Of a stretch of DNA of 64,000 nt, positions 1,082 through 63,375 are shown piece after piece; the stretch's first letter is position 1, and the number at the start of each line of letters is the position of its first letter. This DNA comes from Ruditapes philippinarum (taxonomy: Eukaryota). The DNA lies in assembly GCF_026571515.1 (NCBI RefSeq), contig NW_026855093.1, positions 62,001 to 126,000 of the forward strand, read 5' to 3'. The notes beneath the pieces were generated by a model. The model saw nothing but the letters and a program-made list of their open reading frames with translations, made no database searches and was not told where the DNA came from. Both the position numbers and the translations under genes were made by a program.

Positions 1082-3439
1082 CCAAGCGTTTTGATCGCAT
1101 GACTTTCTGATTTTGTCTACCAGATAAAATTACAATATATTATATGAATGTGACAAAACAGCAAGTTAAAGATGCATTTCTTAATTGTGACCACGCCGAA
1201 TATTTTAAATAACTTGGTCCATCTTTTAGCAATCATTTTTAAGGAAATATTTAGGATAAGTATTGACTTAAGTACAGACTATGACCGACAGCTGTGTTTT
1301 CTGATCTTGGTCTTAACATTGGCATGTGTAGCGATAGTTATTACAAGTGCAAGTTATAAATTAAAATATATTCATTCCGGATAAGATTGAAAGTAAAGTT
1401 ATTTGCTTACTTGCTGCAAACATGTATCAATGCAGTCATGTGATTTAATGCAGATGCGACACAGACAATGATATAATTCGTTGTTTCAAATTTGTATCAT
1501 AACCGTTAAACATTAGAAACGTAATTACACTTTTTCGCGTGCTTTTTTTTACCACAATGGTAATTTAAACCTTATACATTATAGAGTGAATGTAAAGTTC
1601 AATTAAACTTACTTTGTACTTTGAATAAATAATTGTTGTTGTTTGCGAAAATATTACTAAAATTATTACAATTTATGAATTTGTTTGTTTTGCATGTTCA
1701 GCCATAAAAAAGAAAAATTACCCTCCGCATTTTTTGGGTGACCGCAACAATTAAAATGATAAATAAGGCGGGTAATACTCTTTTTATATTTGAATGTCCA
1801 TAACAATTACGAAAATCACAAGGAGGGCACATCCACATACATGGGTTTTGGCAAAAGGTAAGATTGGTAGCATTACCCACGTTCTTATGTTTCCGAAGCA
1901 ATATAAAGGATAATAAGAACATAATACCAATTTTTTACATAGGTATTGTCAACAGTAAAAATAATTATGAGGGTAAGACACTCCCTTTTCTTAGGTGTGC
2001 GCAACAATAAAAAAAACAATATTGTAGAGTGTATAACCCCTACCTTTACTGCCTGCATCCGTTTAAACAGCAATTAGGAGGTTAACACCATTCCCCTTTA
2101 CTTAAGTGTGCGCTACAATTAAAACAATAATAGGGAAGGTGACATGTTATTGTATTTTCAAACAGTAAATGGAAATCCCTAAATAGCGTCTAAAGCACCT
2201 CCTTAGTTATTTATAAATAAAATAAATTGTTCTGATAAATGGAAATAAAAATGTATCTGACTAAGATTTAGTCATCTGTAAAGAAAGATCAATTTTCTTT
2301 GAATGGTATCTTTTCCTGTGTCGGACCTATAAATATCGAAAATTACAAAAAAAGAAAACTGTGTCAACAAAATACATATTTACTTTCCGCTACTTTTATA
2401 ATTTTCAGAAAAATGATAATAGTATGACAGTGAATAGGTTTATATTGCAAAATCTTTAATTCCATCAATAATTATTTCAAAAGTATCTATTGTCAATTGT
2501 GAAATTATTATCTATGAAAAAGTCAATGCTGTTGTTTAGAAATAACAACTAATTCTTAATCTGTTTCAAATCGAAAAAGCCTCATAAGAAAATGACATAA
2601 CCTCGTCAAAATGTGTCGACTTTGCCGTAATAATTTCTACAACACCACATAAACGGAAAAAACATAAACATAAAACTTTCCATTGACTGCATAGAAAATA
2701 AAAATAGGTCGTTTAAATTTTGGCACCAAGCATATTTGTTGTGATCAGAAAAACAAATTATTGTCTTTATATTGATCGTTACTTGCGATGGTAATTATGA
2801 TAATAATCACAATATATTAACGTTATCAATGTACCCTGTCTTGCAGGCTCATACAATATATTGTGGTCCCTGTCTGTCGATGACAAGCACGTGTAACTAC
2901 CAATCACTGTACCTTACATATATTTTAACTCGAACCTATCTTGTGATAACAGGAAGTAGACCTGTTTTGGGATAACAGGAAGGAGACCTGTTTAGATACT
3001 GTGAATATAATACATATTAAAAATAAACGGCACACAAACAGTTGCTATTCTCGTAGACTTTCATGAAGGTTAATCACAGTTTATTTAAATCCATACTCGA
3101 TAGAAATAAAAAATAAAGGCACCGCCATATTCTGTGATCATAAGCAAAAAAACAAATTATTGTCTTATATATGTTACTTGATTAAAAGAATTAGATCACA
3201 ATAAAAAAGAGTATCTTGCGGCTCATCAATAAGTTCCTGTTTGTCATGAAAGCATGTAATACCAATGCATACCTTATATATAAGTCGCACCTATATTTGT
3301 AACAGTAGTAGACTGGTATCATATATTTTTCTTTTAACAAATAGCTCAGTATGAATGTTGTAAGACAAATAAGTCTTTAATAAGAACACAATAACGATAT
3401 AACACGCATTGGTATTTTATATAGTGTTTGTATTTATAT

Positions 3440-6400
3440 TTAATCATCGTCGCCATCTTTCTGTATTCTGTCAGCTGCATACTGCATTGTTTGTCTTAGG
3501 GCAAGTAACAGCGGGATGTTTGTCTGAGTTTCTATATCAAAATCAACCTCATAATTTTTGACCGGATGAATTAATGCCTGCTCGATCCCGAACATTTCAC
3601 TTGCTGTATTTATGGCATCCTTAACCTTAACGCTCCAGAACATTTTCGTGATATCTTTCGCTACTTCATTACACAGCTCATCGACTTTTGTCAAAATCAA
3701 GATCCGTGGGATATCTGTAAAATAAATCAGTATTCTTACTTTAACGGATAAGTGTAACTAGCTTTAATAGGTTTTGGCATCACTTACCATTTTACCAGAC
3801 TAACTATAGGTAACGATGCTAGGTGGATGTGATCACATAAAATATGAAATGAAATATAATGAGGGGAGAGAGTAATTTAATGAACGCAGTCTTCATAATA
3901 TATTTGATACTTCAATAAAATATAGAAAAATGTAATCCCTTAAAAACTTCGAAAGCGAAAAAAAATGTTGCAGGCTCGGTTTGATTGAGCATGTTCATGG
4001 ACGGTAATGAAAAGTGCAAGTTACCGTCCAAACCCCATGGTACCGACATAAGCAGATTTCAACATTTTAACAATAAAATGTGAATTTTGAATTTAGAAAC
4101 ATTCGCAGATGTGTTCATATGGAAGTTTTCATTGCGCGTGCCCTATACGAGAAAACAATGGGCGAAACTTAACAAAATGGAGTTTTAAAAGGGAATCAGA
4201 GGTTATGAAGCCCCCACGTGTGTTGTCGAATTTATAATAAAAGACAAATATAACTTATTTAGCGTGTCTTCCTAAACCTAAAAAGAGAAACATTAATTAA
4301 AATAGCTTAAAATCTAAAATCATTTATATTATTTTCATGAATATTTCTCACACATTTCTGTCGTTTGTTTACTATCCCTTTGCGATATAATTCATGAATC
4401 AACATTGCATTTAAGGTTTACTATTAAATAAATTCGATTACGTTGTTAATAAACCATACTCGCAAAATTTTGTAGACTCTCTTGAAAAGTATCAAATAAT
4501 AATGGCTCATGTCTTTTGGTTTGACCTGTTTAATTAATTTTCTGGCACATATTTAAGAAAAAAAACAAAAAAAAAAACAAAAAAAAAAAAAAAAAAAAAA
4601 AAAAAAACAACAAAAAAAACAAGAAAATAGATAAGAAATAAAAAATAAATAAATGAAATTAAATAAAAAAACAAATAAAAAATAGAGGACAGTGATGTCG
4701 TTACATTCAACTGATTTGTAGATTGAAAGAAAAAGGAAACACTCTGCTAACTTCACTACATAATGATAGTTAAACATGTACTTGTGTGTCAGTGTCTAAT
4801 TCGTGGATACGATTCAAGGAACTCCACTGTGACTAAAAGCATATAATTTGAATTTCTTTTTTAGATCGAATGGGGCACTTAAAAAATATATACATAAAAA
4901 AATAACAATATACATAATATAGATCAGAAATCGTATTTTGTGTTATTCTTAGCCCGAATTAAGTGAAAAGCACTGCAACGCTTTTAAAACTTTGGACATT
5001 TTTTCGCAATTAGAATAATTGTTAAGGTAAAACGGAGTGATCGAATAATCTAAAAAATTTTCACACAAAGTAAATGGTCTAGACCTTTATCCAATGGAGC
5101 ATTTATTTTGAAAATATAAATTCTTGTCTCGTCATACCAAAAAGCTCAGTGGAATGTAAGAAATGAACACAGTTTTAAAGTATACAAAATACGTACGTTC
5201 TCGCGTTATTTTTTCTTGTAATTGCTTAATCTTCTGTTCATACGCTGATGGAATTCCAGCGTGTATGGCTTTTGCACTCATAACAAAGGTAACGCAATGC
5301 ATTTGGTCTTGAAATGTTGGGTTGTGTCTATAATAGGGGCTAGTCTTATCGATTGGACCGGCAGGATTAAACTGCAATAATATCATAATGTTTAACTAAA
5401 TGACGTCATTCCTTTATCAATGATATATTTTGTTCATAAACATATGACCACAATATAAATGATTCAAAATATAAAACACTATTCATATCAAGACTTTGAA
5501 ATAATAGCATATAAGAGCATGACCTTATGTTAAATGTTACAAATGTTAAGCGTTGGTTTTCTCAAAAGACGGACGCTTACATTAACAATTAGTTTAGTCA
5601 TAGCGATATAAAAATTCAAGTACTAAAAAAACTGTTAAAATCTTCCGCCAGTTAGTTTATGTATCTCTTATCATTTCCTTATGCCCTTTCACAAAGATCA
5701 ACAAGATAAAATTGCGGCACGTACACCTTTCTAGATCTAGAGGGTCGAACACGATAATGCTTCTTTATTTCCGTTTGCTGTCCTAAATGTTACCAATTAA
5801 ATGCAAGTGTACAAGTTTCTAGATTGTTAATAATGACAATCTAAAATATACGACTACTAACCCTGTATCCATTTTTGATATGCCCTTTTATTAAGAATGT
5901 CAGGTCATCTGTATGAAAGCCGTGTCCATCACTTGGCTCAATTCCCATTGAATCAAACAAGCGGTATCGTCTTAACAAACTCCCCTCGGTATACCGTTCG
6001 AGCTGTTAGGGGTAAATCAGATTTGAGTATACAATCTTGAAGACTTTTAGGTAACTACTAAAAATGGATGTTATATATTTCACAAACAATTATGCTTTGG
6101 AACATCTATTAAGTATATAAACCCCTGACACAACTTGTTCCTTGGTATATTACACAGGTACTTTTCCACACTGCATTTACCCTATTTATCGTTTTGTACA
6201 CAACAGATTTTTTTACACATTTTTGTATATGAATACGAATATTAGTACAACCAATATAGTCAACACACTATTTAAATACATACTTCATATACAGTCATAA
6301 ATTACACGACACATTTATGAATCATATATTAAGGTTTGTTTGTTTAATTGATTTGGTTTAACGTCACACCGACACAGTATAGGTCATATTGCGAGATTCA

Positions 6401-9400
6401 TGCTTTACTGATGGAGGAGCATTATATCAGACACGCGGGCACCTGAGTAGAATCACCGAAGTTCCATAAGCTAGCTTGGTAGATTCCACACATGAAATAA
6501 TCCAAAGTCATTGTCGGGATTCGAACCCAAGTGGTTTGTAGTCAACGACCTTAACCGTTGGGCCACGGACGCCCGATACATTTATGCATAATTACACATG
6601 TACGTATCATTGTACATTGTAATTACATATTTGTATATAGAAATGTGTGCGTTACACAATAGTTCTTACATATTTGTGAATAACATACTTAGACATTACA
6701 GCAGGGCTCACACTGGCTCAAATAAAATAATAGCCAATAATTTTAACTTAAAAAAAATAATAGCCAAAAGTTCAGCGGACTATTCACGAATTAGCGATTA
6801 ACAACATAAGCAGTTGATTAAATAAACATTACATTTATATCTTTCAGTTTTATAAGGATTCTCAAATAAACTGATACATTTGTGTATATTGATAACTATC
6901 TGTTTTTAAATAGAACCACAACTTTAATTGTTATTATAGAACAGAAAAAAACGTTATAATTAGTATAATTACTGTATAACAATAATATTAAAGATTCATT
7001 ATAACTTTACATAATGCTGTTATCAGACAACTTTTTTTGTTTGTTCTAATCAAATTTTGTCAGCTATTTTGTAACCACTGTCAATTTCCACATTTCACTC
7101 AGAACTGGAGTAGATCTAGGTCATATTATTAGCCTATAGAAATAATACAAGTTTGCAAACTCATTCACAGAATGCAGCCTTTTTTTCTGAATAATTTACT
7201 GAAAAATATCATCTTCACCAATGTAATACAAATTTTCTGCCATAGAAGTAAAGATTTTTTAAGAGAACATAGCTTATTTCACCTTTAAATAAATATCAAA
7301 ATTATCGGTGTCGCGAAAATATGTGACAATCGGATTTTTCCTGTTTTCTGAAGAAATAATCACAATTTTGGTTGTTGTGCAAATGGTTGTTTGGAATTCA
7401 ATACTTTTTAAATATTTTACCATTGTTTTCCACTGGCGATTTAGTCAAGTAGATTAAAACAAAAAAAATATTAAAATTTGCAATTACTGTTTACTGGAAT
7501 TCACGGTAAATTTTGGGTAAGTCAATATCCAGTTTATCAATTTTAAAACGATTTTTATGGCTAATTTACGGATATTTGACGGCTTTTATAAATGCTGGAC
7601 AATATCTTCAAAGTACTTATACAATTATACATCTTGCATGTATTTTATCACCTCGGGCAATCTAGTTAGCAGCACGTGACCTGTAAAAAGTTGACACTCA
7701 ATTAAATGCACCCCGCTGGTGTTAATTGGGTCTACTGCATTCATTATCGATTTTTACACCTTATATAAACACTGTTGGAAGTAAAAAATAATCGCCAGAT
7801 TTTGTAGCCAAAATGCAAAAATAATCGCCAATCTTATAAAATAATCGCAAATGGCGACTATGGCGACCGACAGCGTGAGCCCTGATTACAGGTTTGAACA
7901 CAACACGTTATACATTACACTATCCATCGCAGCTGACACGTTAGACATAACACATTTGAAAATGACATAATATACATTTTGAATAAAGATAAAACCTTAC
8001 ATCTAGTGTCCAGCTCACATCCCTTCTTTCCCCTGTTCCTGCCATTGAACATATTCGTCCTTTCCCAATACTTATAATGGAATTGATAAAACTGGATTTT
8101 CCTGCTCCCACTGGACCTAGAATCAATAAATTTGGCTTTTTCTCCGACTGTAATTCTCTAATTTCGGATAATACGGATCGTTCAAGCTGTGATAAAATGA
8201 AATATTTCATACAATTGCACTGCTCTGTAATCTATATCTGCACGTGATCGTCAATTAAGTTAATGTATCTTCTAGGGTAACTATGTTAAGTCATATCTTA
8301 ATTTGAACTCAGTTTCAATTCATACATGTATATTCTGCAAAATTTATTTATACTTCCTTAAGCTTTGACTAAATGTGAGATTTCTTTACTGCATTACATT
8401 CTTCAAAAACCCACTTTCGTTTTGTAACATCAAATGTTCATATCGAAAAGTTGTGCTGTATATAATATTGAAACAAAAGTAAACTTAAATCAAAAATTGA
8501 ATCTAAACCACCTGGAAGGTATCCTTTCTATTAAAAATGACGAATACGTATAACGCATACCAGGCAAGCTTAAAATGACATTAAACCTATCAAAATGTAA
8601 ATGTTGCAGGTCACGTAAAAATGATTTCAGATCTAGCCATGTAACTGGTTTCAATTTCATAGTATAATTAATAACCCATGTTACGACCAGCAAATGCTTA
8701 AAGATCCTGTAATACAAATTTTTATGGTCTTATATCATAAATATGTACTCAAATCAATTTTGTAAGTTCCAAAAAGCATTATTAAGAAAGATATTACCGA
8801 ATTTAACATTTCATGTAAATTAAAGTAGGTAATAAAAAAATATTTTCTATAAAGTCTAAGTCAATTTTTTTCAATAAGAAATGAATGCATATATTTTAAT
8901 GATTACATATAATATGTACAAATATTTGCAGTACATATTTTACATATTCTTCGACGTTCGGAAAATTGTCTTATAAGCGTAATTATATACATATATATAA
9001 TTCCACTTAAGTGTGGTATACAACCTCAACATACAGGACCTTTAAATAACCTTCGGAATGCATAGATCCCTGGCCTGTTAACCGTTATCGTTCAATACAA
9101 AAAAGAGCTGGAGAGTCTTTTCATATATCAGGCAGTAGTTATATTTCATTCTATCTTTTATTGTTCAATGCATGCCCACTGTTTTAAATAAATTGCCAAT
9201 TTAGCTTAAATCGACTACAAAAATAATTAACATTATGTCACTTTAACAAACGGACCAGTATTGTTGTATTAAATGTTTTATTTCAGATTATAGTTTGAAA
9301 TTGAATATCGGAAAGGCGTGCTCATATGAATCATACTCTCCCAATGGAAATATAGAAGACAAGATTAAAAAATTCTGACCCCATAACAATTATTAAAAGT

Positions 9401-10830
9401 TTTTTGTTTAAAATATTAAGAATATTGGTCTTGTAATTTGCAGGATTACATTCCAGTCAATTACGCTAGTATTATCTTTAAAACACTCGTACCTTAGTGT
9501 AATCATTTACGGGGTTACAAATCCTCTAACTTTCGAATACGGACACGACGAAAATATCTTTAAAAACAATTAAGAATCAACTAAGGAAAGTGATTATCCT
9601 TTTTCCGTTTTGAGTAAATTTCATTCAAATGAATTGCGTTATCCCCACTGCTTATAAAGCAATTGGTTGGTTAAGTCCGTCTTATTTTTCCAAATGAATT
9701 TAATCGGCCGAACCAGTAGTAGCACATAACAAAATATGTCAATAGAAATCGGTAAACGACCAGGAAAAAGTATTCTATGAAGAAAGTTGTGCCCATTATT
9801 TTATGATATTATTTCAGAATCAAAAGTATATTAGCAAAATAAACGAACAAACTAAACAAAAACTAATAAAATTCAATAAAATCAAATAAATAACATTAAT
9901 AAAAAAAAACAAAAAAACTTTCAGTTTTCTTTGATTTAAATTTAGCGAATAGTGATGTATGAAAGACGATGAACATCCAATGACATCATCTCAGAGTACT
10001 TTGTATTCAGGTGGAATGACAAACATATAAAAGAAAGTTACCTCGGCGCTCCAATTTGAAGGTTGCCGCCATGGGCCAGTAGCACTGAACATTTTGGCCC
10101 GATAAATTTTTCTAAATATGTGATGTCCTGATAAAATTCCTAAAAAATGTTCAATCTCGACTGCTGGCTGTCGTGCCGGAGAAGCATCTAAAACTTTTAT
10201 CAAGAAAAGTGTCAATACAAAAGGAGCAATAGGGGAATGTTACACTACATTATGCATACTAAATGTAATATTGGAATCTGTAAATTTATTAATTTCTTAA
10301 TGTTCATTGACTAAATCGTATTTTGAATAAGGTATCAATTAAAGATCTATAATTTACCGTTGATCCAATGTCCAAATGTAGAGTGTTGTGTTAAAGTATA
10401 TATTTACATATAGTGCGTAGTGCAAATATAATTAATAATTTATTAATTAATACTACCGCAAACTATAGCTCTTGTTACTATTCCTTAGTCTAACTTTACC
10501 GAACAAACTTGTACATGAACTCTTCTTATACATGGTTCAATATATTCTTTCAATACAAAATATTCTATTTCTATAATGCGTATTAAAATGATTAAAATAA
10601 AGAAATAAGTCCGAACAAATGTACATATTCCTTCATTATTTGTTATCTGAACAATTTCACTTTTTGTTAATTAACAAAATAATATAAGAAAGAAACCGCA
10701 ATAAAACATACTGTTTAATAATCTTTAAACGATTATTGTATATGAAATTTAGTACCTATTTCAGTATAGTTGACTTCAGAGAGTAACTGAGAAAGAGAAA
10801 TAGTGCTTTACCTGACTGTTCTTATCCCAT
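3440..10830 (-). CDS. IFI44L: IFI44/IFI44L-like P-loop GTPase, copy A; TAA at codon 3 (pseudogene, or a 275-aa isoform starting at Met39)
   Basis: Exons 10830-10812, 10187-10042, 8186-8001, 6002-5862, 5371-5197, 3714-3440, all GT-AG and phase-consistent (942 nt). Motifs: PWR linker, G1 GPVGAGKSSFINS, G3 DSMG, GHIKNGY|FNP, MHCVTFV, G4 LTKVD, PVKNYE. Exon 1 reads ATG GGA TAA. Confidence 0.9.
3935..4215. mobile_element. Dispersed hairpin-rich repeat ('family X') copy
   Basis: Core 'gcaggctcggtttgattgagcatgttcatggacggtaatgaaaagtgcaagttaccgtcc' recurs about 8 times in the window, in both orientations. Confidence 0.75.
4555..4683. repeat. Poly-A/A-rich low-complexity tract
   Basis: About 130 bp of A-runs. 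The paralogous site in unit 2 (16226-16260) is only about 35 bp. Confidence 0.85.
6335..6575 (-). mobile_element. tRNA-derived SINE (older copy, predates the duplication)
   Basis: Minus strand has an A-box-like TGGCCCAACGG, B-box GGTTCGAATCC and an AAAC-rich tail. Paralogous copy at 17898-18141. Confidence 0.85.
6702..7884. mobile_element. Non-autonomous TIR DNA transposon (P/hAT-like), 1183 bp, only in copy A intron 3
   Basis: Terminal inverted repeats CAGGGCTCACACTG / CAGCGTGAGCCCTG, flanked by a 7-bp direct repeat ATTACAG. Multiple subterminal AAATAAT(A/C)GCC motifs. Absent from unit 2. Confidence 0.9.
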
Positions 10831-11115
10831 TGTGTTCTAAATAAAGGTATCGTTCGCTGTTTGTCACTCGTAAAATTTACAAGGAGTTAAAAAAACTAAA
10901 CTTTACTTTCTAAATGTGTGTTGGCAAATTAAGAATTAGTTTTAAGCATTTTTATACTCATATTTCTTTAGAAAGTAATGTCATAAAATAAAAACGCCAA
11001 ACTTATCGTTAAATAAATTGTTTAAAATAATCAGTGAAGAAAATTTCTAAACGAATTGCATAATTCAAGATGCGCATTAAGTTATGAACCAAATGCCGAT
11101 GAGTACACCCTGCAC

Positions 11116-11210
11116 GAAACTAAAAGTAGAAGGCGAAACCGATAAAGTCCGGGATATTCAGAAATTTTCGTTTTTTTTCTTTTCTGGGAAGTAGAAATTG
11201 AAAGTAAAAC
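11116..11210. promoter_or_regulatory. ISRE/GAS/kB-like motif cluster upstream of IFI44-like copy A
   Basis: GAAACTAAAAGT (11116), GGGATATTC (11151), TTCTGGGAA (11182-11190; TTCN3GAA) and GAAATTGAAAGTAAAAC (11194), about 290-380 bp upstream of the ATG. Confidence 0.6.
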
Positions 11211-13373
11211 ACAAAGTCAAAAAATGATTTCAACGAAATAAACATGATCAAACCAGAACAACGTTAATCTAAATGTTTGAGAAAACATTACAAAATAATG
11301 GTAATATAGGTTAAAGTAATATTGTTTAACTTTAAATTGTATAGTTAAAGTATTGACTTAAGTACAGACCATGTTTTCTGATTTTGGTCTTAACATTGGC
11401 ATGTGTAGCGTTAGTTATTACAAGTGCAAGTTATAAATTTAAATATATTCATTCCGGATTAGATTAAAAGTAGAGTTATTTGCTTACTTGCTGCAAACAT
11501 GTTTCAATGCAGTAATGTGATTTAATGCAGATGCGACACAGACAATGATATAATTCGTTGTTGCAAATTTGTTTCATAACCGTTTACCATCAGAAACGTA
11601 ATTACACTTTTTCGCGTGTTTTTTTTACCAAAATGTTAACTTAAACTTTATACATTATAAAGTGAATGTAAAGTACAATTAAACTTACTTTGTACTTTGA
11701 ATATATAATTGTTGTTGTTTGTGAAAATTATTCCTAAAATTATTACAAACGTTTCGTTTATGAATTTGTTTGTTTTGCATGTTCTGCCATAAAAAAAGAT
11801 AAAATTGCCCTCCGCATTTTTGGGTGAATGATTAATAAGGCGGGTAATACTCTCTTTATATTTGAATGTCCACAACAATTACGAAAATAACAAGGAGGGC
11901 ACATCCACATACATGGGCTTTGGCAAAAGGTAAGATTGGTAGCATTCTCCACGTACTTATGTTTCCGCAGCAATAGAAATGATAATAAAGAACATCATAC
12001 CAATTTCTTACATAGGTATTGTCAACAATTAAAATAATTATGAGAGTAAGACACTCCCTTTTTTAAAGTGTGCGCAACAATTCAAAAACAATAATGTAGA
12101 GTGTAATAACCCTACCTTTACTGCCTGCATCCGTTTAAACAGCAACTAGGAGGTTACCACCACCCCCCTTTACTTAAGTGTGCGCAACAATTGAAACAAT
12201 AATAGGGAAGGACACATGTTTTAGTATTTTCAAACAGTGAATGGAAATCTCTAAATAGCGTCTAAAGCACTTTCTTAATTATTGATAAATAAAATAAATA
12301 AATAAATTAATAAAAATACTGGAAGAAAAACATCTCTTACAATATGTACACATCCTTTGTTTAGGGTTGTTATTGTTTTAATATGAATTAAAACTATATT
12401 GATATGTTATACTAATTGTTCTGATAAATGGAAATAAAAATGTATCTGACTAAGAGTTAGTCATTCTGTAAAGAAAGATCAAAAAGTTCGGCTGCACGGT
12501 CCTTGACAATTTTCTTTGAATGGTGTCTATTTTCTGTGTCGGACCTATTAATATCGAAATTAAAAATAAACGAAAACTGTGTCAACAAAATACATATTTA
12601 TTTTCCGCTACTTATATAATTTTCAGAAAAAATGCTAATAGTATGAAAGTGAATAGGTTTATTATGCAAAATTTTTAATACCATCAATAATTATTTCAAT
12701 AGTATTTAATAAATCAATAACGGATTGTCTATGAAAACTTCAATGCTGTTGTTTAGAAAGAAAAATATTTCTTAATCTGTTTCGAATCGAAAAAAATTTA
12801 TAAAATCCTCATAAGAAAATGACATAACATCGTCAAAACGTGTTGTTTTTGCAATAATATTTTTCTTCAACACCACATAAACGGAAATAATTTAAAATTA
12901 TATGGAAAATAAAAATAAGATCGTTTAACTTTTTGCACCAAGCATATTTGTTGTGAACAGTAAAGCAAATTATTGTCTTTATATTAAGCGTTACTTGCGA
13001 TGGTTATTATGATAATAATGACAATACATTTTCGTAATCACTGTACCCTGTCTTGCAAGCTCATACATTATATTGCGTTCTCTGTCTTGCGATATCAAGC
13101 ACGTGCAACTTCCAATCACTGTACCTTACATATATTTTAACTCAAACCTTTCTTATGATAACAGGAAGTAGACCAGGAAACTGACTTGTGTACATACTGT
13201 GAATATAATACATATTAAAAATAAACGCCACGCAAACAGTCTTCATTTTCTTAGACGTTCACGAAGGGTATTGCGTTTATTTAAATAACTCGAATACAGT
13301 TACAAAATAAGCACCGCCTAATAAGACACTACAGTTTATTTAAGTTAGAAGAACTTAGATACAATAACAAAAG

Positions 13374-15051
13374 TGTCACAAAGAAAACAATTTCGTAAAT
13401 GCTAAGAAGTGTTTTCAGTCCTTTGATTTTTGTAGTATTCTATTTTCCTGCCAAACCACAGCACAGTTTTATACCAAATCCAACGTAAATTATTGTATCA
13501 TATTTTTGTAAAATTCAGAGTTATCGAGTGAAATTACTTATTTCAGTATTTTTATAGATTGCTTAAGTTTCTTGGTATCATTTCAAGCATTTTAACATAT
13601 TCCTCATAAAATTCGGTCAAGTAATAAGAAAGTTAGATTTTTGTGATAAGGTGCAAAATTTTTTATGTTCTACAAATTTCATATTACGGGCCTGCATATT
13701 TTGTTATACACGCGTTCTGGAATGCAAGAAAATCGTAAAAGTTATATTTCACGCTTTCCACTCAGGGTAACTATGCCTATATAATGAACGAATTTTAAAT
13801 CTTCTTTGGGGACTCGTATATAGATGTTTAAAATCACACAAGGTCATTTTGACAGACATATTTATTCTTGTTGTGTAAAATTGTTAAGCTTGTGCAAGAT
13901 AAATCTTTCTTTTCTTGTTGTTTTATTTAGTTAATTTTTGTTATTTCAGAAGATCGTAATTCAGTTAATTTGAAAGAAATTCGTTTTATAGAAGTTTTAT
14001 TTTGCATTTTGTCGGTAATTTTTCGTTCTCTAATTTTTCGTCTTCTGTAGATTTATGGCTCTAGTGTTTCAGTCATTTCTTGAATATTGGTAATCTTTTT
14101 ATTATCATTGATAGTTGTTGTTATGTATGGAAGGCCGTTAACGCATTGAGTGCACGTTATTTTATCATGCATATGTTTCATTTATATTTACTAAATAAGT
14201 TTTCATGTTCTCGTTTCACAGTAAAAGTTAATTATAATTAAGTCTGCTGCAGATGTTCTTTTTTTATATAATTCTTATTTCTTTAAGTAATTTTCATATT
14301 ACATTATCAACATTTTTTTGTACGAAATTATAGGGATTCGATTCAATGAATGATTTCGTCGATATTTATGTGGTATCCGGTCTGGCTTCATGTTTTATAT
14401 CTAAAAACGTATTTTATTTTACCTGTGTGTATAGGATCCATAAGGGACATTATATTTTAGAAGCTTTGGTTTTAGAAATCCGACAAAGGTCCGGCTATTC
14501 CGAAGGGAGATACTTATATCTTTATATTTGTGTACCATGGACATTTACCATGTTTTATATTTTGTAGCTTTCACCCTCAAATTTGAATCACGCATGTGTT
14601 CAACATAGCGAGGACAGTGGAGATTGTGACGTAGTGACGCAAGCCCACATCCGCAGTATTGGATCTACAATCTGTAGACAGTACAGAATCGATCTTTCTG
14701 CTTTGGATGGGTCACATCTGGAGATTGTGACGTAGCGACCACACATCCACAGTCTTGGATATACACTCTGTAGACAGTACAATATCGATCTCTCTTCTTT
14801 GGATGGGTCACATCTCGAGCATCATTGAATATTTGTTTTGAGATACGCCACCGGAAAAAATGCTATTCGTCAGGACATTAGAAACGTGACACGGAACTTT
14901 TTTTTTCTTTTATTCATTTCATACCAATCACTTTCACTATAAATATTCATTTATTTTGTAAATAAATGTTAAATAGTTTGTACCGAGTTGTGCTTTATTT
15001 TGTATGGTAGTTGTGGTCAGCCTGTGTTCCATCGTAGTTCATATTGTGACA
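13374..15051 (+). mobile_element. Solo LTR (1678 bp) of an LTR retrotransposon
   Basis: TGTCACA...TGTGACA termini, 5-bp TSD AAAAG (13369-13373 and 15052-15056), AATAAA near the 3' end, internal tandem duplication of about 100 bp (14618/14718). Absent from unit 1. Confidence 0.85.
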
Positions 15052-15269
15052 AAAAGGAGCACCGCTCAATAAAGTCTCTGTATGTAGAAAAATGCATAAT
15101 CCAAATATATCTATTTCGGCATAAGTCCACGACAATTTTATTATAACATGGTACCATACATTATTCTTTTAACAAATAACTCAGTAAGTATGTTGTAACA
15201 CAAACACGCTTTTATTAAGAACACAATAAAGCCATAACATGCATTTGGTATTTTATTAAGTGTTTGTAT

Positions 15270-18200
15270 TTAATCTTTCTGTATTCTGTCTGCTGCATAC
15301 TGCATTGTTTGTCTTAGGGCAAGTAATAGCGGTATGTTTGTCTGAGTTTCTATATCAAAATCAACCTCATAATTTTTGACCGGATGAATTGATGACTGCT
15401 CGATCCCGAACATTTCACTTGCTGCTTTTATGACATCCTGAACCTTAACGCTCCAAAACATTTTTGTGATATCTTTCGCTACTTCATCACACAGCTCATC
15501 GACTTTTGTCAAAATCAAGATCCGTGGGATATCTGTAAAATAAATCAGTATTTGTTTTACTTTAAGGGATTAGTGTAACTAGCTTAATAGGTTTTGGCAC
15601 ACTTACCCTTTTACCAGACAATCTATAGGCAACGATGATAGTAAGACGTGATCACATAAAATATGAAATAAAATATAATGGGGGGAGAGAGCAATTTAAT
15701 GAACGCATCCTTAATTATATTTTTGATACTTTAATAAAATAGAGAAAATTGAATCCCTAAAGAACTTTAAAGCGACAAAAAATGTTGCAGACTCGGCTTC
15801 ATTGAGCATGTTCATGGACGATAATGAAAAGTTCAAGTTACCGTCCAAACCCCATAGCACCGGCTTTAGCAGATTTCAACATTTAAGCAATAAAAATGTG
15901 AAATATTGAATTTAGAAACATTCGCGTGTCTTCCTAAACCTAAGAAAAGAAACATTAATCAAAATAGCTTTAACACTAAAATCATTTATATTCTTTTCAT
16001 TTATATTTATAACACATTTCTGTAGTTTGTTTACTCTTTGCTTTATAATTCATTCATCAACATTGCTGCATTAAGGTTTACTATTAAATAAATTCGATTT
16101 TTGTTGTTAATCAACCATTCATGAACAATTTGGTAGACTTACTTGAGAAATGTCAAATAATTTTGGCTCATGTCATATGATTTGACCTTGTTTAATTGTT
16201 TGTCTGGCGCATCTTTACTCACACGAAAATTAACAAAAATAAAACAACAACAACAAAAGTAATGGTGGACAGTGATGTCCCTACATTCAACTTATGTGTG
16301 AGTCGAAAGCAAAAGGACATAATCGGCTAATTTCACTATATAATGATAGGTAAACATGTACTTTTGTGTCAGTGTCTAATTTGTGGATTATGGATTATGT
16401 TAAAGGAACTCCACTGAGCCTAAAAACATAAAATTTGAATTTCTTTTATAGAAGTCCAAAAAAAGTGTAAAGCGTTGCTACGCTTTTATATTTTAGGACA
16501 TATTATAGCAATTAGAAAAGTTATTAAGGTAAAACGGAGTGGGCGAATAATCTGAAAAAAATTCACACAAAGTAAATGGTCTAGACCTTTATCCAATGGA
16601 GCATTTATTTTGAAAATAAAAATTCTAGTCTCGTCATGCCAAAAAGCTCAGTGCACGTGGAGACCCTATAAGGGGAATGTATGAAATGAATACGGCTTTA
16701 AAGTAGACAAAATACGTACGTTCTCGCGTTATTTTGTCTTGTAATTGTTTAATCTTCTGTACATACGCTGATGGAATCCCAGCGTGTATGGCTGTTGCAC
16801 TCATAACAAAGATAACACAATGCATTTGGTCTTGAAATGTAGGGTTGCGTCTAAAATAGGAGCTTGTCTTAGTGATTGGACTGGCAGGATTAAACTGCAA
16901 TAATATCATAATGTCTTACTAAATGACGTCCTTAATCATTGATATATTTTGTTCATAAACATATGACCACAATGTAAATGCTTCAAAATATAAAACACTA
17001 TTCATATCAAGACTTTGAAATAATAGCATATAAGAGCATGGCATTATGTTAAATGTTACAATTAGCGTTTGTTTTCTCACAGGACGGATGCTTATATTAA
17101 CAATTAGTTCAGTCATAGCGATATAAAAATTCAAGTACTAAAAAACTGTTAAAATCTTCCGCCAGTTAGTTTATATATCTCTTATCATTTCCTTATGCCC
17201 TTTAACAAAGATTTACAAGATAAAATTGCGGCACGTACAGCTTTCTAGAGCTAGAGGGTCGGATACGATAATGCTTCTTTATTTCCGTTTGCTGTCCTAA
17301 ATGTTACCAATTAAATGCAAGTGTACAAGTTTCTAGATATTTAATAATGACGGTATAAAATATAAGACTACTAACCATGTATCCATTTTTGACATGCCCT
17401 TTTATTAAGAACGTCAGGTCATCTGTATGAAAGCCGTGTCCATCACATGGCTCAATTCCCATTGAATCAAACAGGCGGTATCGTCTTAACAAACTCCCCT
17501 CGGTATACCGTCCGAGCTGTTAAGGGTAAATCATATTTAAATATATACTATCTTGAAGACTTTTAGGTGTTTACTACAAATTAATTTAATTTGTTTCACA
17601 AACAATAATGCTTTGGGACATCTATAAAGTATATAAACCCCTTACACAATTTGTCCCTTACGACACAGGTACATTTCCTCACTGCATTTACCCTATTTAT
17701 CTTTTTGTAAAAAAATTGTAATCTTTTTATACCATTTTTGTATATGAAAACAAATATATGTACAACACGTTTATTCATCTATATATTACAAACAGCCGAC
17801 CTTTAAGTATCGAACCCATAAAGTAAACACATTATCTAAATACATACTTTACATACAGTCATAAATTACACGACACATTTATGAATCATATATTTAGGTT
17901 TGTGTGTTTGATAGATTTGGTTTAACGTCACACCGACACAGAAAAGGTCATATTGCGAGGTTCAAGCTTTACTGATGGAAGAGCATTATTTCAGGCACGG
18001 ATGGGCACCTGAGTAGAACCACCGAAGTTCCATAAGCTTGCTGGATAGCTTCCACACATGAAATAATCCAAAGTCTATGTCGGAATTCGAATCCAAGTGG
18101 TTTGTAGTCAACGACCCTAACCGTTGGGCCACGGACGCCCGATATACATTCATACATTTATGCATAATTACACATGTACGTATCATTGTACATTGTAATT

Positions 18201-21200
18201 ACATATTTGTATATAGAAATGTGTTCGTTACACAATAGTTCTTACATATTTGTGAAAAACATAGGTTTTGAACACAACACGTTATACAATACACCATCCT
18301 TTGCAAATGACACGTTTATTTGTTTGTTTTGGGTTTTACGTCACATCGACACAGTATAGGTCATATCGCGACGTTCCAGCTTTACTGGTGGAGGAAGACC
18401 TCAGGTGCCCTTTCGTGCATTATTTCAGGCACGAACGGGCACCTGAGTAGAACCACCGACGTTCCGTTAGCTAGCTGGATAGCTTCCTCACATGGAAGAA
18501 TCCAAAGTCCTTGTGGGGATTCGAACCCACAGCGGTAAGGGGCAAGTGGTTTGACCACTCGGCCACGGACGCCCCCAAATGACACGTTAAACATAACACA
18601 TTTGCAAATGAAATAATATACATTTTGCATAAACATAAAACCTTACATCTAGTGTCCAGCTCGCATCCCCTGTATCACCTGTTGCTGCCAGTGCACATTT
18701 TCGTCCTTTTCCAATACTTAAAATGGAATTGATAAAACTGGATTTTCCTGCTCCCACTGGACCTAGCATCAACAGATTTGGCTTTTTCTCCGGCTGTAAT
18801 TCTCTTATTTCGGATAATATGGATTGTTCAAGCTGTGATAAAAGGAAAATAATTCCTACAATGTCACTGTTCTTTAACCAATATCTGCATGTGATCGTCA
18901 ATCAAATTTATGTATCTTTCTTGTTTATTTAGGGGAACTATGTTAAGTTATATCTTAATTTTAATTAAGTATATTCTGCAACATTTATTTACACTTCCTT
19001 GTTTACTGCATTTATTCAACAACCAACTTTCGTTTTGTAACATCAAATATTCATTTCGAAAAGTTGTGCTATATATGATATTGAAACACAAGTAATCTTA
19101 AATCAAAATCGGATCTAAATCATGTGAAAGGTATTTTTTCTATTGAAAGCGGCGAATACGTATACCGCACACCAGGCAAGCTTAAAATGACATTAAAACT
19201 ATCAAAATGTAAATGATAAGCGTGCAGGTCACGTAAAAATAACTTCAGATCTAGCCATGTAACTGGTTCCAATTTCATAGTATAATTAATAAGTTAAATG
19301 TTGATGCTCCACATCAAAGACACCGCCAAATGATTGTGAACAGTCAATCAGCATTGAAATATGTTCTTTATTACAGTTGAATATCCGAAGCACATGTTCT
19401 TTGTATGTGCTTGTTGTTTAATAATTAAGTTGCATATTTTTGTGAAAAAGTAGAAACTAATGCATAAATTTACAAAGTAATGCCATGTCTGAAATTTCTT
19501 TAATGTTTGTGTGTTGCGACAAAGATTGAAACGTATGGTCGAAGCAAAATAAATTGGATAACAATTAAAAATGAAATGATTGGTATACTTTAAATAAATT
19601 CAAGACAATATGTGCCGAGAATATGTCCATTTACATATTGGTACGAATTGCATAATGTTCGAATGATTTGAGAACGAACTGTTTTGCAGTGATCTCCCCT
19701 TACTGGTCGTAGCGTAACCGCGGCGCAGAGTTTGGCGTACTTTCTTAACGGTTATGGGAGAACCCCCTTTCTGATAGTGGGCGTGCGTGGTTTAGGCTTT
19801 TTAACTTGTAATCTAAGGATTCGACAAGTGATATTAATCAAAGATGTCCTGATTTCCTTCCGCCCCGTCAACGAAGACTAAATGCTAGCATACGGAGAAT
19901 TATATTAAATTTGGCGACAATTTAAGGCGGAGCCGAACTTCAACAGAGGCGGAGCAAATGAAGTGAATAACACTGCCTCAGTCGTTACCTCTCTCAACGG
20001 TTAAGTGTCAGAACGATCGACTATAGTCTGGCTCATTGACACGTTATTTATTATGATGAAAATGATAATAAATTAGATGATGATAAAAAGAATATGATAT
20101 TCAAACATGGCAATATCATTTCAGTTAAACGTTTATTCTAATCCCTTAAAGCTGTGTGACATGTTTTACATCAGAAAAGCTATTTTTATTAGAAAATTTG
20201 GAAACAATATAATTTTGTTAAAATATAACCAAAATACACAAATCATGTCTAAACTTTCCCGATTGCTGTATAGACAAATGCATATCTACTAGACGTGCTT
20301 GAGGCGTCTTAAAACCCATGTGACGCACAACAAATTCTTAAATATGCTGTAATGGTTTTAAATATCATAAATATGATGCTCAAATAACATTTTTATATAT
20401 TCTTCGACGTTTGGAAAATTGTTTATAAGCGTAATTATATATATATATATAAGTTCATATATATGAAGTTCACTTCAGTGTGGTATACAACCTCTACATA
20501 CAGGATCTTTAAATAACCTTCGGAATGCATAGATCCCCGACCTGTCCAATCATAATTATAACCGTTATCGTTCAATACAAAAAGAAGAGCTGGAGAGTTT
20601 TTTTCATATACCAGGCAGTAGGTTATATTTTATTCTATCTTCTATTGTTCAATGCCCGTTGTTTTGAATAAATAGCCAATTTAACATAAATCGACAACAA
20701 AAATAATGAACATTATGTCACTTTTACAAACGAACCATTCTTGTTTTATTGAATGTTTGATTTTAGATTATAGTTTGAAGTTGAATATCTTAAAGGCGTG
20801 CTCATATGAATCATACTCTCCCAATGGAAATATAGATGACAAGATTAAAAAATTCTGACCCTATAACAATTATTAATTTTTTTATTATTTAAGATATTAA
20901 CAATATTGATCTTGTAATTAACAAAACTTTATAATTTACAGAATAACCAATCAATTACGCTAGTATTATCTTTAAAACACCCCTACCTTGTAAGTGTTAT
21001 CATTTACGGGGTTACAAATCCTCTCACTTTCGAATACGGACACGACGAAAATATCTTTAAAAAAAACAACAAGAAACAAATAAGGAAAGTCAATATCCTT
21101 TTTCCGTTTTGAGCAAATTTCATTCAAATGAATTACGTTTTCTCACTAACCAGATAGAAAAATCCTTAAATGTTACTAAAAATAGCGGTGTTGGAAAATC

Positions 21201-23247
21201 TTATCTCACATGGGCTTATCTCACACTCAACGTGCAGCACTTCTAAATAATACGCGATTCACTCCTATTTTAATAAAAATGAAACGTCAAAAGGTCAAAA
21301 TGTATTAAATATTTGTGAGGTAATCTATTTAATTGTCTACGGAATCAAAACAGATTGATATTAACTTTCACACTGCAATGAGTCCTACTCAACCTAGGTC
21401 CGCCCTTTCCAATATCGATTTGTTACTAAAAATAGCACACTTTAAAATATCGAAACATTCTTCCTAAAATAATCGGATATTATGACGCTTTGCCTGAAAA
21501 ACATTCATGTTTTTTGTTATGATAACGATGTTTCTTGATGACGAATCTTATTTTGATATATTTTAATTGAATATTCGGCCAAAATAACCGAAAAAGTAGA
21601 AAAATCTTTGCAAACGGTAAACGCTTTTTTGTCAACCATTGAAGTATGGACTGAATTCCTTATAAACACTTATATTATGGCACTTTCCGTTTTTAATATC
21701 GATGTGTTTTATCATGACAACCTTGCTCTTTGATGAGGGATCTTATATGAATTTATTTTCATTAAATTTTTCTCACATAAACTTGGTCAGAAGAATTTTT
21801 TGCGGACGTACATAATGCTTTTTAATCCTAAGCCCCGCCCCCTTTTCAAAAATAGGTACGTTGTAATGCGCGTAGCAAGTAGATTCACTGATATTTGTGT
21901 GTCCAAATGAGTGAGAAAAATAATCAACCATTGGGTTAGCTAGAGCATAGGGAAATTCCAACCCTCGGGCAATCGGTTCCATCGGGAACTCGCCAAGGCT
22001 CGTTCCCGGTGGAACCGATCACCCTCGGGTTCGGATTTCCCTATCCTCTATCAAACCCAATGATAGATTCTATTAATCCCCACTGCTTATAAAGTTAATT
22101 CCGTCTTATTTTTCCAACTGAATGTAATCGGCTGAACCAGTAGTAGCACATAACAAAATATGTTAATAGAAATCGGTAAACGACCAGGAAAGAGTATTCT
22201 ATGAAGAAAGTTATGCCCATTATTTTAAGATATTCTTTCATAATCACAAGTATATTTGCAAAATAAACAAACAAACCAAACAAAAATTAATAAAATTCAA
22301 TAAAATTAAATGAATAAATAAATAAAAAAAAAACAAAAAAACTTTCAGTTTTCTTTGATTTAAATTTAGCGAATAGTGATGTATGAAAGACGATGAAAAT
22401 CCAATGACATCATCTCAGAGTACTTTGTATTCAGGTGGAATGACAAACATATGAATGGAAGATACCTCGGCGCTCCAGTCTGAAGGTTGCCGCCATGGGC
22501 CAGTAGCACTGAGCCTTTGGGCCCGATAAATTTCTCTAAATATATGATGTCCTGATAAATTTCCTAGAAAAGATTCAATCTCGACTGCTGGCTGTCGTAC
22601 CTTGAAAGCATCTAAAACTTTTATCAAAGAAAAGTGTCAATACAAAAGGAGCCATAGAGGAATGTTTCACTAAAATATTATTACAAAATTTAATATAGGA
22701 CTATGAGCATACATTTAGATTTATTAATTTCTTAATATTCATTTACTAAATCGTATTTTGAATAAGATACCCTTTAAAGGTTTATAATTTACTGTTCATT
22801 ATCCAGTGTCCAAATGTAGAGTATTGTGCTATAATATAATTACATCTTGAGCGTAGTGCAAATATAATTAATAATTTATTAATTAATACTACCGCAAACT
22901 ATTACTATTCCTTAGTCTAACTTTACAGAACAAACTTGCACATGAACACTTCTTATACATGGTACAATATATTTTTTCAATAAAAAATATTCTATTTCCA
23001 TAATGCGTATTAAAATGATTAAAATAAAGAAATAGATCCGAACTATGTACATGTGTCTTCATATATCGTTATCAGAACAATTATAATTTTTGTAAAATAA
23101 TACAATCATGTAAGAAAGACACCACAATAAAACATATTGTTTATTAATTTTTAAACGACTATTGTATATGGAATTTAGTAAGTATTTCAACATAATTAAC
23201 TTAATGAGAAAGAGAAACTGTGCTTTACCTGACTGTTCTTGTCCCAT
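15270..23247 (-). CDS. IFI44L: IFI44/IFI44L-like P-loop GTPase, copy B, intact, 309 aa, N-terminal MGQEQS
   Basis: Exons 23247-23229, 22611-22466, 18832-18647, 17516-17376, 16894-16720, 15532-15270 (930 nt, open frame, GT-AG). Motifs GPVGAGKS, DSMG, MHCVIFV, LTKVD, PVKNYE. Confidence 0.93.
15750..15925. mobile_element. Family X repeat copy (paralogue of 3935-4215, internally deleted)
   Basis: Same gactcgg...gagc / ggacg...ttaccgtcc core. Confidence 0.7.
17898..18141 (-). mobile_element. tRNA-derived SINE (older copy)
   Basis: Paralogue of 6335-6575. Confidence 0.85.
18317..18576 (-). mobile_element. tRNA-derived SINE, young insertion with TSD
   Basis: A-box TGGCCGAGTGG, B-box GGTTCGAATCC, central hairpin CTCAGGTGCCC...GGGCACCTGAG and AAAC tail. 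12-bp TSD AAATGACACGTT at 18305-18316 and 18577-18588. Empty site in unit 1 at about 7934. Confidence 0.93.
19293..20312. mobile_element. Insertion of about 1 kb private to unit 2, bounded by TTAA at both ends (unclassified DNA element)
   Basis: Interrupts 'tataattaataa|cccatg', which is uninterrupted at about 8673 in unit 1. Ends ttaaatgttgatgctccac...gaggcgtcttaa show only imperfect inverted similarity. Confidence 0.55.
21148..22075. mobile_element. Insertion of about 0.93 kb private to unit 2 with a long subterminal palindrome (Crypton-like non-autonomous element)
   Basis: Absent at about 9640 in unit 1. Imperfect hairpin of 134 bp at 21929-22062. No TIRs. Confidence 0.65.
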
Positions 23248-23537
23248 TGTTTTCTAAATAAAGGTACCGTTCGCTGTTTGTCACTCGTAAAATTTACAAG
23301 GAATTAAAGAAACTAAACTTTACCTGCTAAATGTGTGTCGGCAAATTAAGAATTACTTTTTAAGCATTTTTATTCTCATTATTTATGCAAGTAATGTCGT
23401 AAAATAAAAACGCCAAGTTTATCGTTAATTAATAATCAGCCAGGAAAATTTCTAAACGGATTACATAATTCAAGAAGCGCATTATATGTATTGAAACAAC
23501 TAATATAATCAATCCAGACCAAATACCGATGATGTAC

Positions 23538-23630
23538 GAAACTAAAAGTAGAAGACGAAACCAATAAAGTCCGGGATATTCTGAAATTTGCGTTTTTTCT
23601 ATTCCTGGAAGAAGAAATTGAAAGTAAAAC
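23538..23630. promoter_or_regulatory. ISRE/GAS/kB-like motif cluster upstream of IFI44-like copy B
   Basis: GAAACTAAAAGT (23538), GGGATATTC (23573), TTCCTGGAA (23602-23610) and GAAATTGAAAGTAAAAC (23614). Confidence 0.6.
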
Positions 23631-36392: not shown

Positions 36393-39300
36393 TTAAGTAA
36401 AATTGTTTGCATCTTTTTTACAGATATATTGAAATTTGTAAAACTTGAAACAAGGATAGTCATTCCACATATTATATGGGGATTCAAATCCCATAATAAC
36501 GCAGTTCTGCACTCTTCCTCCATTTGGCTCTCCTGATCTAAAGTATCTGAAAAAGACAAGCATGTAATACATACAAAATTTTTCAATAAATTGAATCATT
36601 AACACACCTTTATCAGACTTCCTACTTTTGGGCTGACATCTCAAATCTAATACCTCTTTAAACATTTCTCAAGTAAACAACTATTGCTAATATGTCGTTA
36701 TAACAATAGGGTTCGATAAACGATTTGCAATTTGTGAACCCCTGACCTCGGATTCATTAAAATAATGTAACGAATCAAGATCAGAATGACAATTAGTCAT
36801 TCAAAATCAAGGTATAAAAGGTAGTTTTTCCTCTCTTATTTTACATTTTCTATCCACCGTTTTTAATGTCCCAAAACCATATATACAGCGGTCTAAGGTA
36901 CAAAAATATTCCTTATTAAAATCCATTAATTTTGAACCTTGACCAACATGGGTCAGGTTGGAGATTTATCATGTGCTCTAAATGTCGTAGTGAACACGTG
37001 ACACCGTAAAATACACACGAAGTGAACAAATTAGACTTGTTTCACTTGCACTCTCCGCCATGTTTGTAATAGTAACTGCAAAGGCATGTTCTTGTCACAT
37101 GATGTCTTCAAACATAAATTGGTGATGATATCTGCATTTCAATTTTTGATAAACGTAAGTTTACATATTTTACATTCAAAATTATATCAAGCCAGGCAAA
37201 CTGTCTCTCCGTTGAATCTGGTGATGCTCCCCGAATAGGGTTTGGACACAGAAAAGTACACCTCTTGTAGATTAAGAGTTAAGTCCCGGATAAAGTTTAA
37301 AGTGCAATTATTCAAAAATTAGGCAAGGAAGAGTAACTTGAATGTTCTTTGTACCACACTTTTACTCGATGCCATCTATCTATCGGCAAAGTTTCTTGTT
37401 GATATCTCCTGTAGTTTCACTGTTATGTCCCACACAATGTTTACAGTTTAAAATTGAAAAACGGCAATAACTCCAAACATAGGCAAGTCAGACTTGCGTT
37501 TCTTTGCACTGCATATATAAGCTATGAGATCTATCTACTTACAAATTTTCATGTTGATATCTCATAGTTTCAGCGTTATGTCCCGGAAAAAAATCATGGT
37601 GTAAACGTGAACAAAGGGCAATAACTTCAAAATAAGGAAAGGCAGAGTTATGGTGTTTTACACTGCACAGTGTCTTGCTGAAATCGCTTTTACTTTCAGC
37701 TTTATGTCCTGGAAAATATTCTTAGTGTTAAAATGAACAAAGGGCAATAACTACAAAATTAGCCAAGCAGAATTTTACTGCATTGCAGTTTTACTCGATA
37801 AGATCTATCTTACTATTTAGTTTCTTGTTGATCTCTCTTATGGTTTATAGTAATGTTCTGGACAAATTCCAAAGTAAAAAAGTAAACAAAGGGCAACAAC
37901 TCAGAAATTATTCAAGGCAAAGTCATTGTTCTTCTGCTATGCATTTCTACTCAATGATATATATATACCTGATATTTCGTACAGTTTCAGAGTCAAGTTC
38001 AGTACAAAGTTTATAGTGTCAAATTGAATAAAGGGCAATAACTCAAAAATCAGGCAAGCAGAGCTACAGTTCTTTTGATTTGCATTTTTACTCAAAAAGA
38101 TCTATCTATCTTCCTGCTAAGTTTCTTATTGATATCTCTAAGGTTTCAGAGTTACGTCCCGGACAAAGTTCAAAGTGTAAAAATAAACAAAGGGCAATAA
38201 CCCTATACTTAGGGAAAACAGATATACGTTTTTTTGCACTGCATTTTGTCTCAATGAGATCTATCTACCTACACGGTTTCTTGTTGAGAACTTTTGTGGT
38301 TTCAGAGTTATGTCCCGGACAATGATCAAAGTGAAAAATTTAAAAAATGCAATATTTCCGAAATTAAGGCAGTAAGACTTACGGTCTTTAATTGTGGTTT
38401 TTCGTTGAGCATTAAAATCATATAAAATTTATTTCGGAACCCATCAAGCTTTGTTTTCATTTTTGAGGGTCCAAAATAGATATCAAATGCTTTTTGTAAC
38501 TAAAATAACAAAGTTCTGCCAAAATGTCAAGAAAATGGTGGTATGAAATATAGAGGTCTTCTGACATTGTTGAATACAATATTGATTATATTGGACTCAT
38601 AAAAGCTACAAAACCTATATCAAACTCGGCTAGAACCTCGTCCAATATAGTATTTACAGCTGTGTACTGTAATTACATTTAGTCTTGTACTGAAAAATGT
38701 ATAGTTTAGATATTATCCATATGATTAACTCCATATCACCCAAAGTAGGCCTATATCACCAAAGAAGTGAGTTCCGTAAATTTAAATAAATGTAAGTTAA
38801 AAATGGCATATTTTTTTAGTTTGTCTTACAATTAGCATGACATATTTTTCTGTAATTATCAAAATTTGTTTATTTTAATTTACTTAATGTTATCATTTAG
38901 ATGAACAAGAGCCACAGCCGGGAGGTTGCAAACACGACTTTTAAAGGTTGGAATAGTCTGAGTTTTCCTTAGAATTTTATGGTATTAATTAATCTTAAAG
39001 TACAAACCAAATTTATTGTTGTGTTATGTGGTCATGTCTCACTTTTGTCCTTTTGTTATGGGTCATTGAACTGGTTTAAAAACAGAAAACGTGCTTTCGC
39101 CTCGTGTTCGTCTTCAAATGAAGAGTACTTCGGCAATGACTACGAAAACGGCTGAGAGCAAAACGAATTGTTACTTAGTCTCTAGTTATAATATGTTTTC
39201 ATAGATATTCATGGGCCAAAAGAGCGAGATCTTAATTCATTAATTAGAATGAGAATTTGTGGTTATTGATCATTCAATCATTCAATAATAAAAGAAGTAA

Positions 39301-63099: not shown

Positions 63100-63375
63100 G
63101 AAAATAAGAATCCCTAAAGAACGCTCAAAACGATAAAATTGAGAATGTTGCAGGCTCAGTTTGAATGAGCCTGTTCATGGACGGTAATGAAAACAGCAAG
63201 TTACCGTCCATGCCCCCTAGCACCGGCTTAAGCAAAATTCAACATGAACTTTTACAATTTTGAATTTTGAAACATCCGCAGATGTGTTCATATGGCGATT
63301 TTCATGGAACCTTCAATGTGACACGTAAGTGCCATACTATGAAAAACGGCATATGGTCCCCAAGTAAAAAAACAA
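63100..63375. mobile_element. Family X repeat copy (a further copy begins at about 63975)
   Basis: 'gcaggctcagtttgaatgagcctgttcatggacggtaatgaaaacagcaagttaccgtccatgccccctagcaccggc'. Confidence 0.8.

Follow-up and report, generated by a model that had tools for sequence, protein, structure and literature searches.

A cluster of ISRE-, GAS- and kB-like motifs beside two duplicated IFI44-like genes of Ruditapes philippinarum

Two tandemly duplicated IFI44-like genes of Ruditapes philippinarum each carry, 5' of the start codon, three co-oriented ISRE-like sites, one GAS and one kB-like site matching its consensus at 9 of 10 positions, all in 88 bp. This block is probably (we would put it at about 0.65) a promoter-proximal, immune-inducible control module of both genes, with IRF as its main input. 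An IRF-driven inducible element is well supported by the sequence because the cluster is non-random, lies beside the first coding exon and contains sites of the type that mollusc IRFs activate in ISRE reporters. The block is thus offered as a well-founded prediction from one duplicated promoter, and it fits a picture that was already expected.

Results

Composition of the motif block

The window (the whole 64,000-nucleotide stretch that was analysed) was searched with patterns for GAS, ISRE/IRF-E, kB and Ets-IRF sites that were consensus strings, not matrices from a library. In the copy beside gene B (copy B), the block opens with an ISRE/IRF-E-like site, GAAACTAAAAGT, at 23538..23549 (+), which has one mismatch to GAAANNGAAASY and is identical in the copy beside gene A (copy A, 11116-11127). 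The next site, GAAGACGAAACC at 23551..23562 (+), also has one mismatch to GAAANNGAAASY, and its copy A counterpart (11129-11140) differs from it at one spacer position only. A first-pass annotation of this DNA had listed one ISRE-like site besides the full one; such a site exists, but the count falls short, as these two were found. The kB-like sequence in the same annotation is the 9-mer GGGATATTC at 23573..23581 (+; copy A, 11151-11159), i.e., the 10-bp consensus minus its last C. Against the 10-bp GGGRNNYYCC it scores 9 of 10, the tenth base being T or A.

The GAS palindrome reads TTCCTGGAA in copy B (23602..23610), where it is the sole TTCCNGGAA in the window, and TTCTGGGAA in copy A (11182-11190). 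Both copies fit TTCN3GAA as well as the stricter TTCYNRGAA, and, as had been reported, the half-sites are kept while the spacer is CTG in copy B and TGG in copy A. A gap of 3 bp, also as annotated, separates the GAS in both copies from the full ISRE/IRF-E, GAAATTGAAAGT(AAAAC), which matches GAAANNGAAASY exactly at 23614..23625 (+) and is identical at 11194-11205. The motif layout is therefore the same in both duplicates (23538-23625 and 11116-11205), in agreement with the earlier claim. The genes lie on the minus strand, and the block is situated 291-378 bp 5' of the ATG in copy B and 286-375 bp in copy A.

One extra full ISRE match (23208..23219, +) is located ~10 bp within intron 1 of gene B; its core is retained in copy A (10791-10800) with an altered 3' end, and it may be a chance pyrimidine tract. 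The Ets-IRF composite element has the consensus GGAA-NN-GAAA, with a spacing of 2. The GGAA-to-GAAA spacing is 3 in both copies of the block, and on inspection we dropped the Ets-IRF composite reading for this reason; a heat-shock-element reading was likewise dropped on spacing. Rfam models gave 0 matches at E<=1 over 22300-24600, and a repeat search around the block revealed no terminal repeats and no transposon anatomy.

The duplicated IFI44-like genes

The tandem duplication spans 1258..23786 (unit A, 1258-11349; unit B, 11348-23786), and its units are 91% identical over 7333 aligned columns. The copy A block (11116..11205) ends 144 bp from the junction at 11348/11349, so that copy A inherited little upstream DNA beyond the block. 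Gene B (15270..23247, -) has six coding exons (23247-23229, 22617-22466, 18832-18647, 17516-17376, 16894-16720 and 15532-15270), is intact and has a translation identical to P0034 (XP_060586350.1, 311 aa); a frameshift suspected in its exon 2 was dropped once the true acceptor was placed at 22617. Gene A (3440..10830, -) also has six coding exons (10830-10812, 10193-10042, 8186-8001, 6002-5862, 5371-5197 and 3714-3440) and equals P0032 (XP_060586349.1) save for a TAA at codon 3 (10822-10824, -), a codon that is Gln in both gene B and RefSeq isoform X1. All introns of both genes are GT-AG. RefSeq places the two genes under one name, as isoforms X1-X5; isoform X1 may have been modelled with exon 1 of gene B, and translation of gene A from an internal Met would yield the 275-aa isoform X4, which lacks the N-terminal peptide. 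Because codon 3 is a stop in this assembly, selection on copy A may be relaxed.

Between the block and the start codon, a 69-nt segment (23254..23322, -; 96% identical between copies) is probably a spliced 5'-UTR intron, judging from its donor (CAG|GTAAAG in B, AAA|GTAAAG in A) and the acceptor before 23253. Intron 2 of copy B alone holds a 933-bp insertion (21143-22075) with an 81-aa open frame without Pfam match and a perfect 10-bp kB site at 21950-21959.

The IFI44-like identity given in the first-pass annotation was borne out. A Ruditapes philippinarum RefSeq protein with the name interferon-induced protein 44-like matches the last exon at 100% identity, the top atlas matches (score 0.98) are named IFI44-like, and a profile of 20 clam-type proteins retrieved TLDc-bearing IFI44-like proteins of scallop, oyster, abalone, lamprey, fish and lizard at E<=1e-52, these relatives being 10 of the 150 listed matches, picked by length. 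TLDc was present in 10 of these 10 longer relatives, chosen as they were by length, and absent from the four clam proteins scanned (P0034, P0032, P0036 and P0017). Genes A and B accordingly belong, on these similarities, to the IFI44 family and encode short TLDc-less IFI44-like proteins. With IFI44 and IFI44L, which combine TLDc with a GTPase-like domain, they share the RefSeq name and the C-terminal P-loop GTPase-like domain, whereas they lack TLDc and begin instead with a short MGQEQS peptide, which we take to resemble a myristoylation signal. Proteins P0003-P0036 form an expanded venerid subfamily of short IFI44-like GTPases, many of which begin with MG and a proline-rich stretch; such starts suggest membrane anchoring by myristoylation of the MG-starting members. 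Searched with an IFI44 alignment, prokaryotic genomes gave nothing beyond weak generic P-loop matches at 28 loci (E 3e-5 to 1e-3), and viral contigs gave no matches. The promoter pattern had a sole match among metagenome contigs (L001, 5001-5051, -), on a marine contig of unrelated coding DNA; this contig shares no BLAST similarity with the window and does not match IFI44 coding sequence, and we set it aside as chance.

The window holds other features. A third, older IFI44-like paralog (50679-59691, -) matches P0017; none of its first exons was found in 59400-64000, and its 5' end lies beyond the window. Open frames on the opposite strand of an intron of this paralog (56093-56801, +) include a Death domain (PF00531, E 1.2e-5). 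Divergent gene(s) at 26013-33493 (+) start with a short exon of hydrophobic character, followed by Cys-rich ones near 26910 and 27417. A TSP1 domain (PF00090) is encoded at 31437-31748, and another exon, at 33200-33493, has no Pfam match. A gene at 36393-41174 (-) has signal-peptide-like, coiled-coil and C-type lectin exons (PF00059, below cut-off), and a degenerate DDE_3 (Tc1/mariner-type) transposase remnant is found at 61117-61938 (-; PF13358, E 1e-7). Tandem arrays occupy 52459-53951 (period ~168 bp) and 37298-38389 (period ~160 bp).

Frequency of the motifs in simulated sequence

The first-pass annotation had cautioned that AT-rich DNA yields such motifs by chance, which is accurate for the single motifs but not for their combination. 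The window contains 11 ISRE cores (10-11 expected), 9 kB 9-mers (7-8 expected) and 40 loose GAS sites, somewhat above the 25-26 expected. In 150 simulations for each Markov order, the expected number of GAS sites lying no more than 5 bp from an ISRE was 0.03-0.07 per 64 kb with loose patterns and <=0.007 with strict ones. When AT-matched Markov models were trained with both blocks excluded, three ISREs fell within 100 bp in 2 of 400 simulated windows at order 2 and 0 of 400 at order 5; with a strict GAS added, the counts were 1/400 and 0/400, and three ISREs together with GAS and kB sites occurred in 0 of 800, these criteria having been set post hoc, after the block was seen, and a genome amounting to many windows. 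Nowhere else in the 64-kb window do as many as two such ISREs share a 100-bp stretch. The cluster is non-random and statistically unusual. Copies A and B were treated as one origin and not two, in line with the earlier remark that the duplicates are not independent.

Comparison of the two copies

The aligned blocks match at 89 of 97 columns (92%) vs 91% for the duplication, so there is no conservation peak. None of the 8 substitutions lies in the 45 motif columns (hypergeometric 0.005). When the same 45-column mask was slid along the duplication, it stayed intact at 136 of the 6822 other positions (0.02), where mask positions overlap and the mask was itself defined post hoc from the motifs seen. 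Reduced masks gave 280/6822 (0.04) for the three ISREs plus GAS and 447/6822 (0.07) for the three ISREs. The GAS with its adjacent ISRE alone was intact at 1466/6822 positions (0.21, not significant). We regard these values as modest evidence for selection acting on the motif cluster, and, because of the last of them, the copy comparison provides no evidence for selection specifically on the GAS. The contrast between a changed spacer and retained half-sites, which had been put forward in favor of the GAS, is present, but it amounts to 2 substitutions and is a weak argument.

Transcription of the locus

Reads and contigs from runs chosen by species label were aligned to copy B only (22300-24100); depth is not comparable across bins, because most reads are A-type and fall partly below the 90% threshold on copy B. 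In run X1 (contigs; RNA presumed), the joint of exon 1 and exon 2 had a depth of 489 vs 16-49 for intron contigs, showing that an A-type gene is expressed and spliced. The exon 1-side 25 letters in this run stop exactly at the acceptor before 23253, and these contig ends suggest an upstream non-coding exon. Run X16 contained A-type as well as B-type contigs, and the two forms are thus not confined to this assembly. The block was covered by contigs of neither X1 nor X16, in data where filtering may leave holes that prove nothing.

Sampled at ~4-5%, raw RNA runs X23 and X24 contributed 18 and 28 reads, respectively. The A-type GAS spacer was present in all 14 reads at 23601-23606, and no motif-column difference occurred among the differences listed for reads at the block (50 others lie beyond those listed). 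Ten of the 14 block reads were oriented as the 4 exon 2 reads at 22544, i.e., in gene sense, and 4 were antisense; 6 reads extended a median of 54 letters past 23632 into A-type flank. Read depth on the block reached 6.5 plus 2.4 and the intron bins at 22910-23214 were empty, a pattern that argues against DNA contamination. The block is transcribed at a low level, mostly in gene sense, as would be expected from a long first exon, from transcription flanking a promoter or from read-through. Because RNA reads cross it, the block may lie in or adjoin the 5' leader rather than upstream of the transcription start, or the start may be elsewhere.

Discussion

We propose that nucleic-acid sensing, by RLR-MAVS or cGAS-like/STING-TBK1 routes as in known pathways, would activate clam IRFs, which would bind the GAAA repeats of the block and turn on the IFI44-like genes directly. 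A JAK-activated STAT homodimer at the GAS would supply a second, cytokine-relayed input; we consider that STAT use of this site falls a little short of an even chance. Rel may help at the kB-like site, although we think its use there doubtful. The mechanism would differ from that of ISGF3 in relying on clam IRFs and a STAT homodimer to read the sites. ISGF3 requires STAT2 and IRF9, which to our knowledge are vertebrate-specific. The first-pass annotation had spoken of a STAT/IRF-driven antiviral regulon: the sequence favors its IRF element, but the STAT/GAS part is weaker (P 0.21), a regulon goes beyond one duplicated promoter, and "antiviral" is carried over from oyster data.

Mammalian ISRE reporters respond to oyster IRF2 and IRF8 (PMC5557890, PMC5869526), as do IFN-beta reporters (PMC5557890), and CgIRF1 and IRFs of scallop, shrimp and amphioxus bind ISRE (as cited in PMC13524488). 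Oyster IFI44 is up after poly(I:C) and virus (PMC12943528, PMC7064767). ISRE activation by mollusc IRFs and IFI44 induction in oyster are thus already published. In shrimp, IRF binds an ISRE within the Vago4 5'-UTR (PMC4602278) and IFI6-16 drops upon IRF or STAT knockdown (PMC9144789), and in amphioxus the promoters of viperin and Mx are STAT targets (bioRxiv 10.64898/2026.08.17.745176). Two sets of observations count against an IRF-centred reading. After poly(I:C), one IFI44-like gene of the Manila clam changed by +11.07 and one IFI44 gene by -25.60 (PMC7430831), neither being mappable to genes A or B; and in Nematostella, 40-60% IRF knockdown, or STAT knockdown, left cGAMP-induced genes undiminished, the authors turning to NF-kB (PMC8713801).

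The block might be an inert chance cluster of A-rich words that was copied once by the duplication, with the real promoter elsewhere, e.g., at a distant shared non-coding first exon. The near-chance frequency of the individual motifs, the ~91% identity that the copies would show anyway and the selection of the block out of a genome-wide scan would all agree with this view, but a cluster seen in at most 2 of 400 simulated windows that also sits less than 400 bp from the ATG of an ISG homologue, and whose motif columns are spared by substitutions, makes it unlikely. A shared upstream exon could account for isoforms X1-X5 under one RefSeq name, yet so could mis-joined exon 1 reads around the codon-3 stop of gene A. 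Similarly, the high-coverage run X1 has no contig over 23276-23946, but this hole says little, as run X16 lacks the same region and filtering may have removed contigs.

It is also quite unlikely that the element is real and has other readers, i.e., Rel/NF-kB at GGGATATTC or Ets-/BCL6-type factors at GGAA and TTC-GAA, serving basal, tissue-specific or antibacterial rather than antiviral expression. GGAA is retained in both copies, oyster IRF1 is active in the LPS response too (PMC13524488), the Nematostella cGAMP responses do not need full IRF or STAT levels (PMC8713801), and expression differs greatly between runs without known treatment. Three of the five sites are nevertheless IRF-type, the incomplete kB site occurs at chance frequency, and GGAA and GAAA are one base too far apart for Ets-IRF. 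That the copy B block is an enhancer of the divergent plus-strand gene, whose first visible exons are near 26013, with its proximity to the IFI44-like gene incidental, seems very improbable. Splice-bounded Cys-rich open exons do lie on that strand (~26013-26051, 26910-26992 and 27417 onward), head-to-head at ~2.4 kb, and the 4 antisense reads among 14 would suit such a role; the block is, however, ~8x nearer to the IFI44-like ATG, and it was duplicated and retained with gene A, which has no such neighbor.

If the block is an IRF-centred control module, it bears on whether molluscs rely on a relay resembling interferon, in which a secreted signal works through JAK-STAT, or on cell-autonomous IRF induction only. 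An oyster IFN-like protein and receptor have been claimed (PMC8218723), while reviews see no evident homologue of type I IFN in oyster or molluscs. In a compact native element with IRF and STAT sites the two inputs would be separable by point mutation, giving a readout for the missing cytokine. A broader proposal is that the GAS+IRF-E(+kB) grammar predates interferon and that IFI44-like genes and other bivalve ISG homologues are under the joint control of clam IRF and STAT, with the same cis code as vertebrate IFN-responsive composite genes; this is tentative and, in our view, probably too strong. If it were true, a bivalve antiviral regulon would be readable from genomes, and the 88-bp block could be used as a native reporter in the search for the antiviral cytokine that activates STAT in molluscs.

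Among invertebrates, native antiviral genes are controlled via IRF or STAT sites in the promoters of shrimp Vago4 (PMC4602278), oyster CgIFNLP (cited in PMC13524488) and amphioxus viperin and Mx. The Vago4 ISRE lies in the 5'-UTR (PMC4602278), where the clam block may lie too. The work cited on those promoters concerns one factor class each, whereas the clam block has putative IRF, STAT and kB-like sites within 88 bp, beside an effector gene. The mollusc assays considered here relied on ISRE or GAS reporters of mammalian origin in human cells, or on the CgIFNLP promoter, and the invertebrate cis-element literature covered, which leaves out most subscription journals (and with them much shellfish immunology), yielded no native bivalve GAS+ISRE composite or IFI44 promoter. 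The closest counterparts are vertebrate. Human GAS-ISRE composites have spacings of 0 to ~415 bp in either order (PMC10287828), a range that includes the 3-bp gap in the clam; the composite promoters of APOL6, UBE2L6, TRIM69, PARP14, STAT2 and IRF9 (PMC10287828) likewise place a GAS beside an ISRE at an ISG-type gene, and an NF-kB site within ~40 bp, comparable to the kB-like site of the clam block, is also a known layout (PMC10287828). The clam block differs in consisting of predicted sites in a protostome without recognised type I or II interferon. Vertebrate IRF1+GAF composite promoters would follow the same logic as that proposed here, and, as far as its sequence tells, the clam block is a known kind of element in a new lineage.
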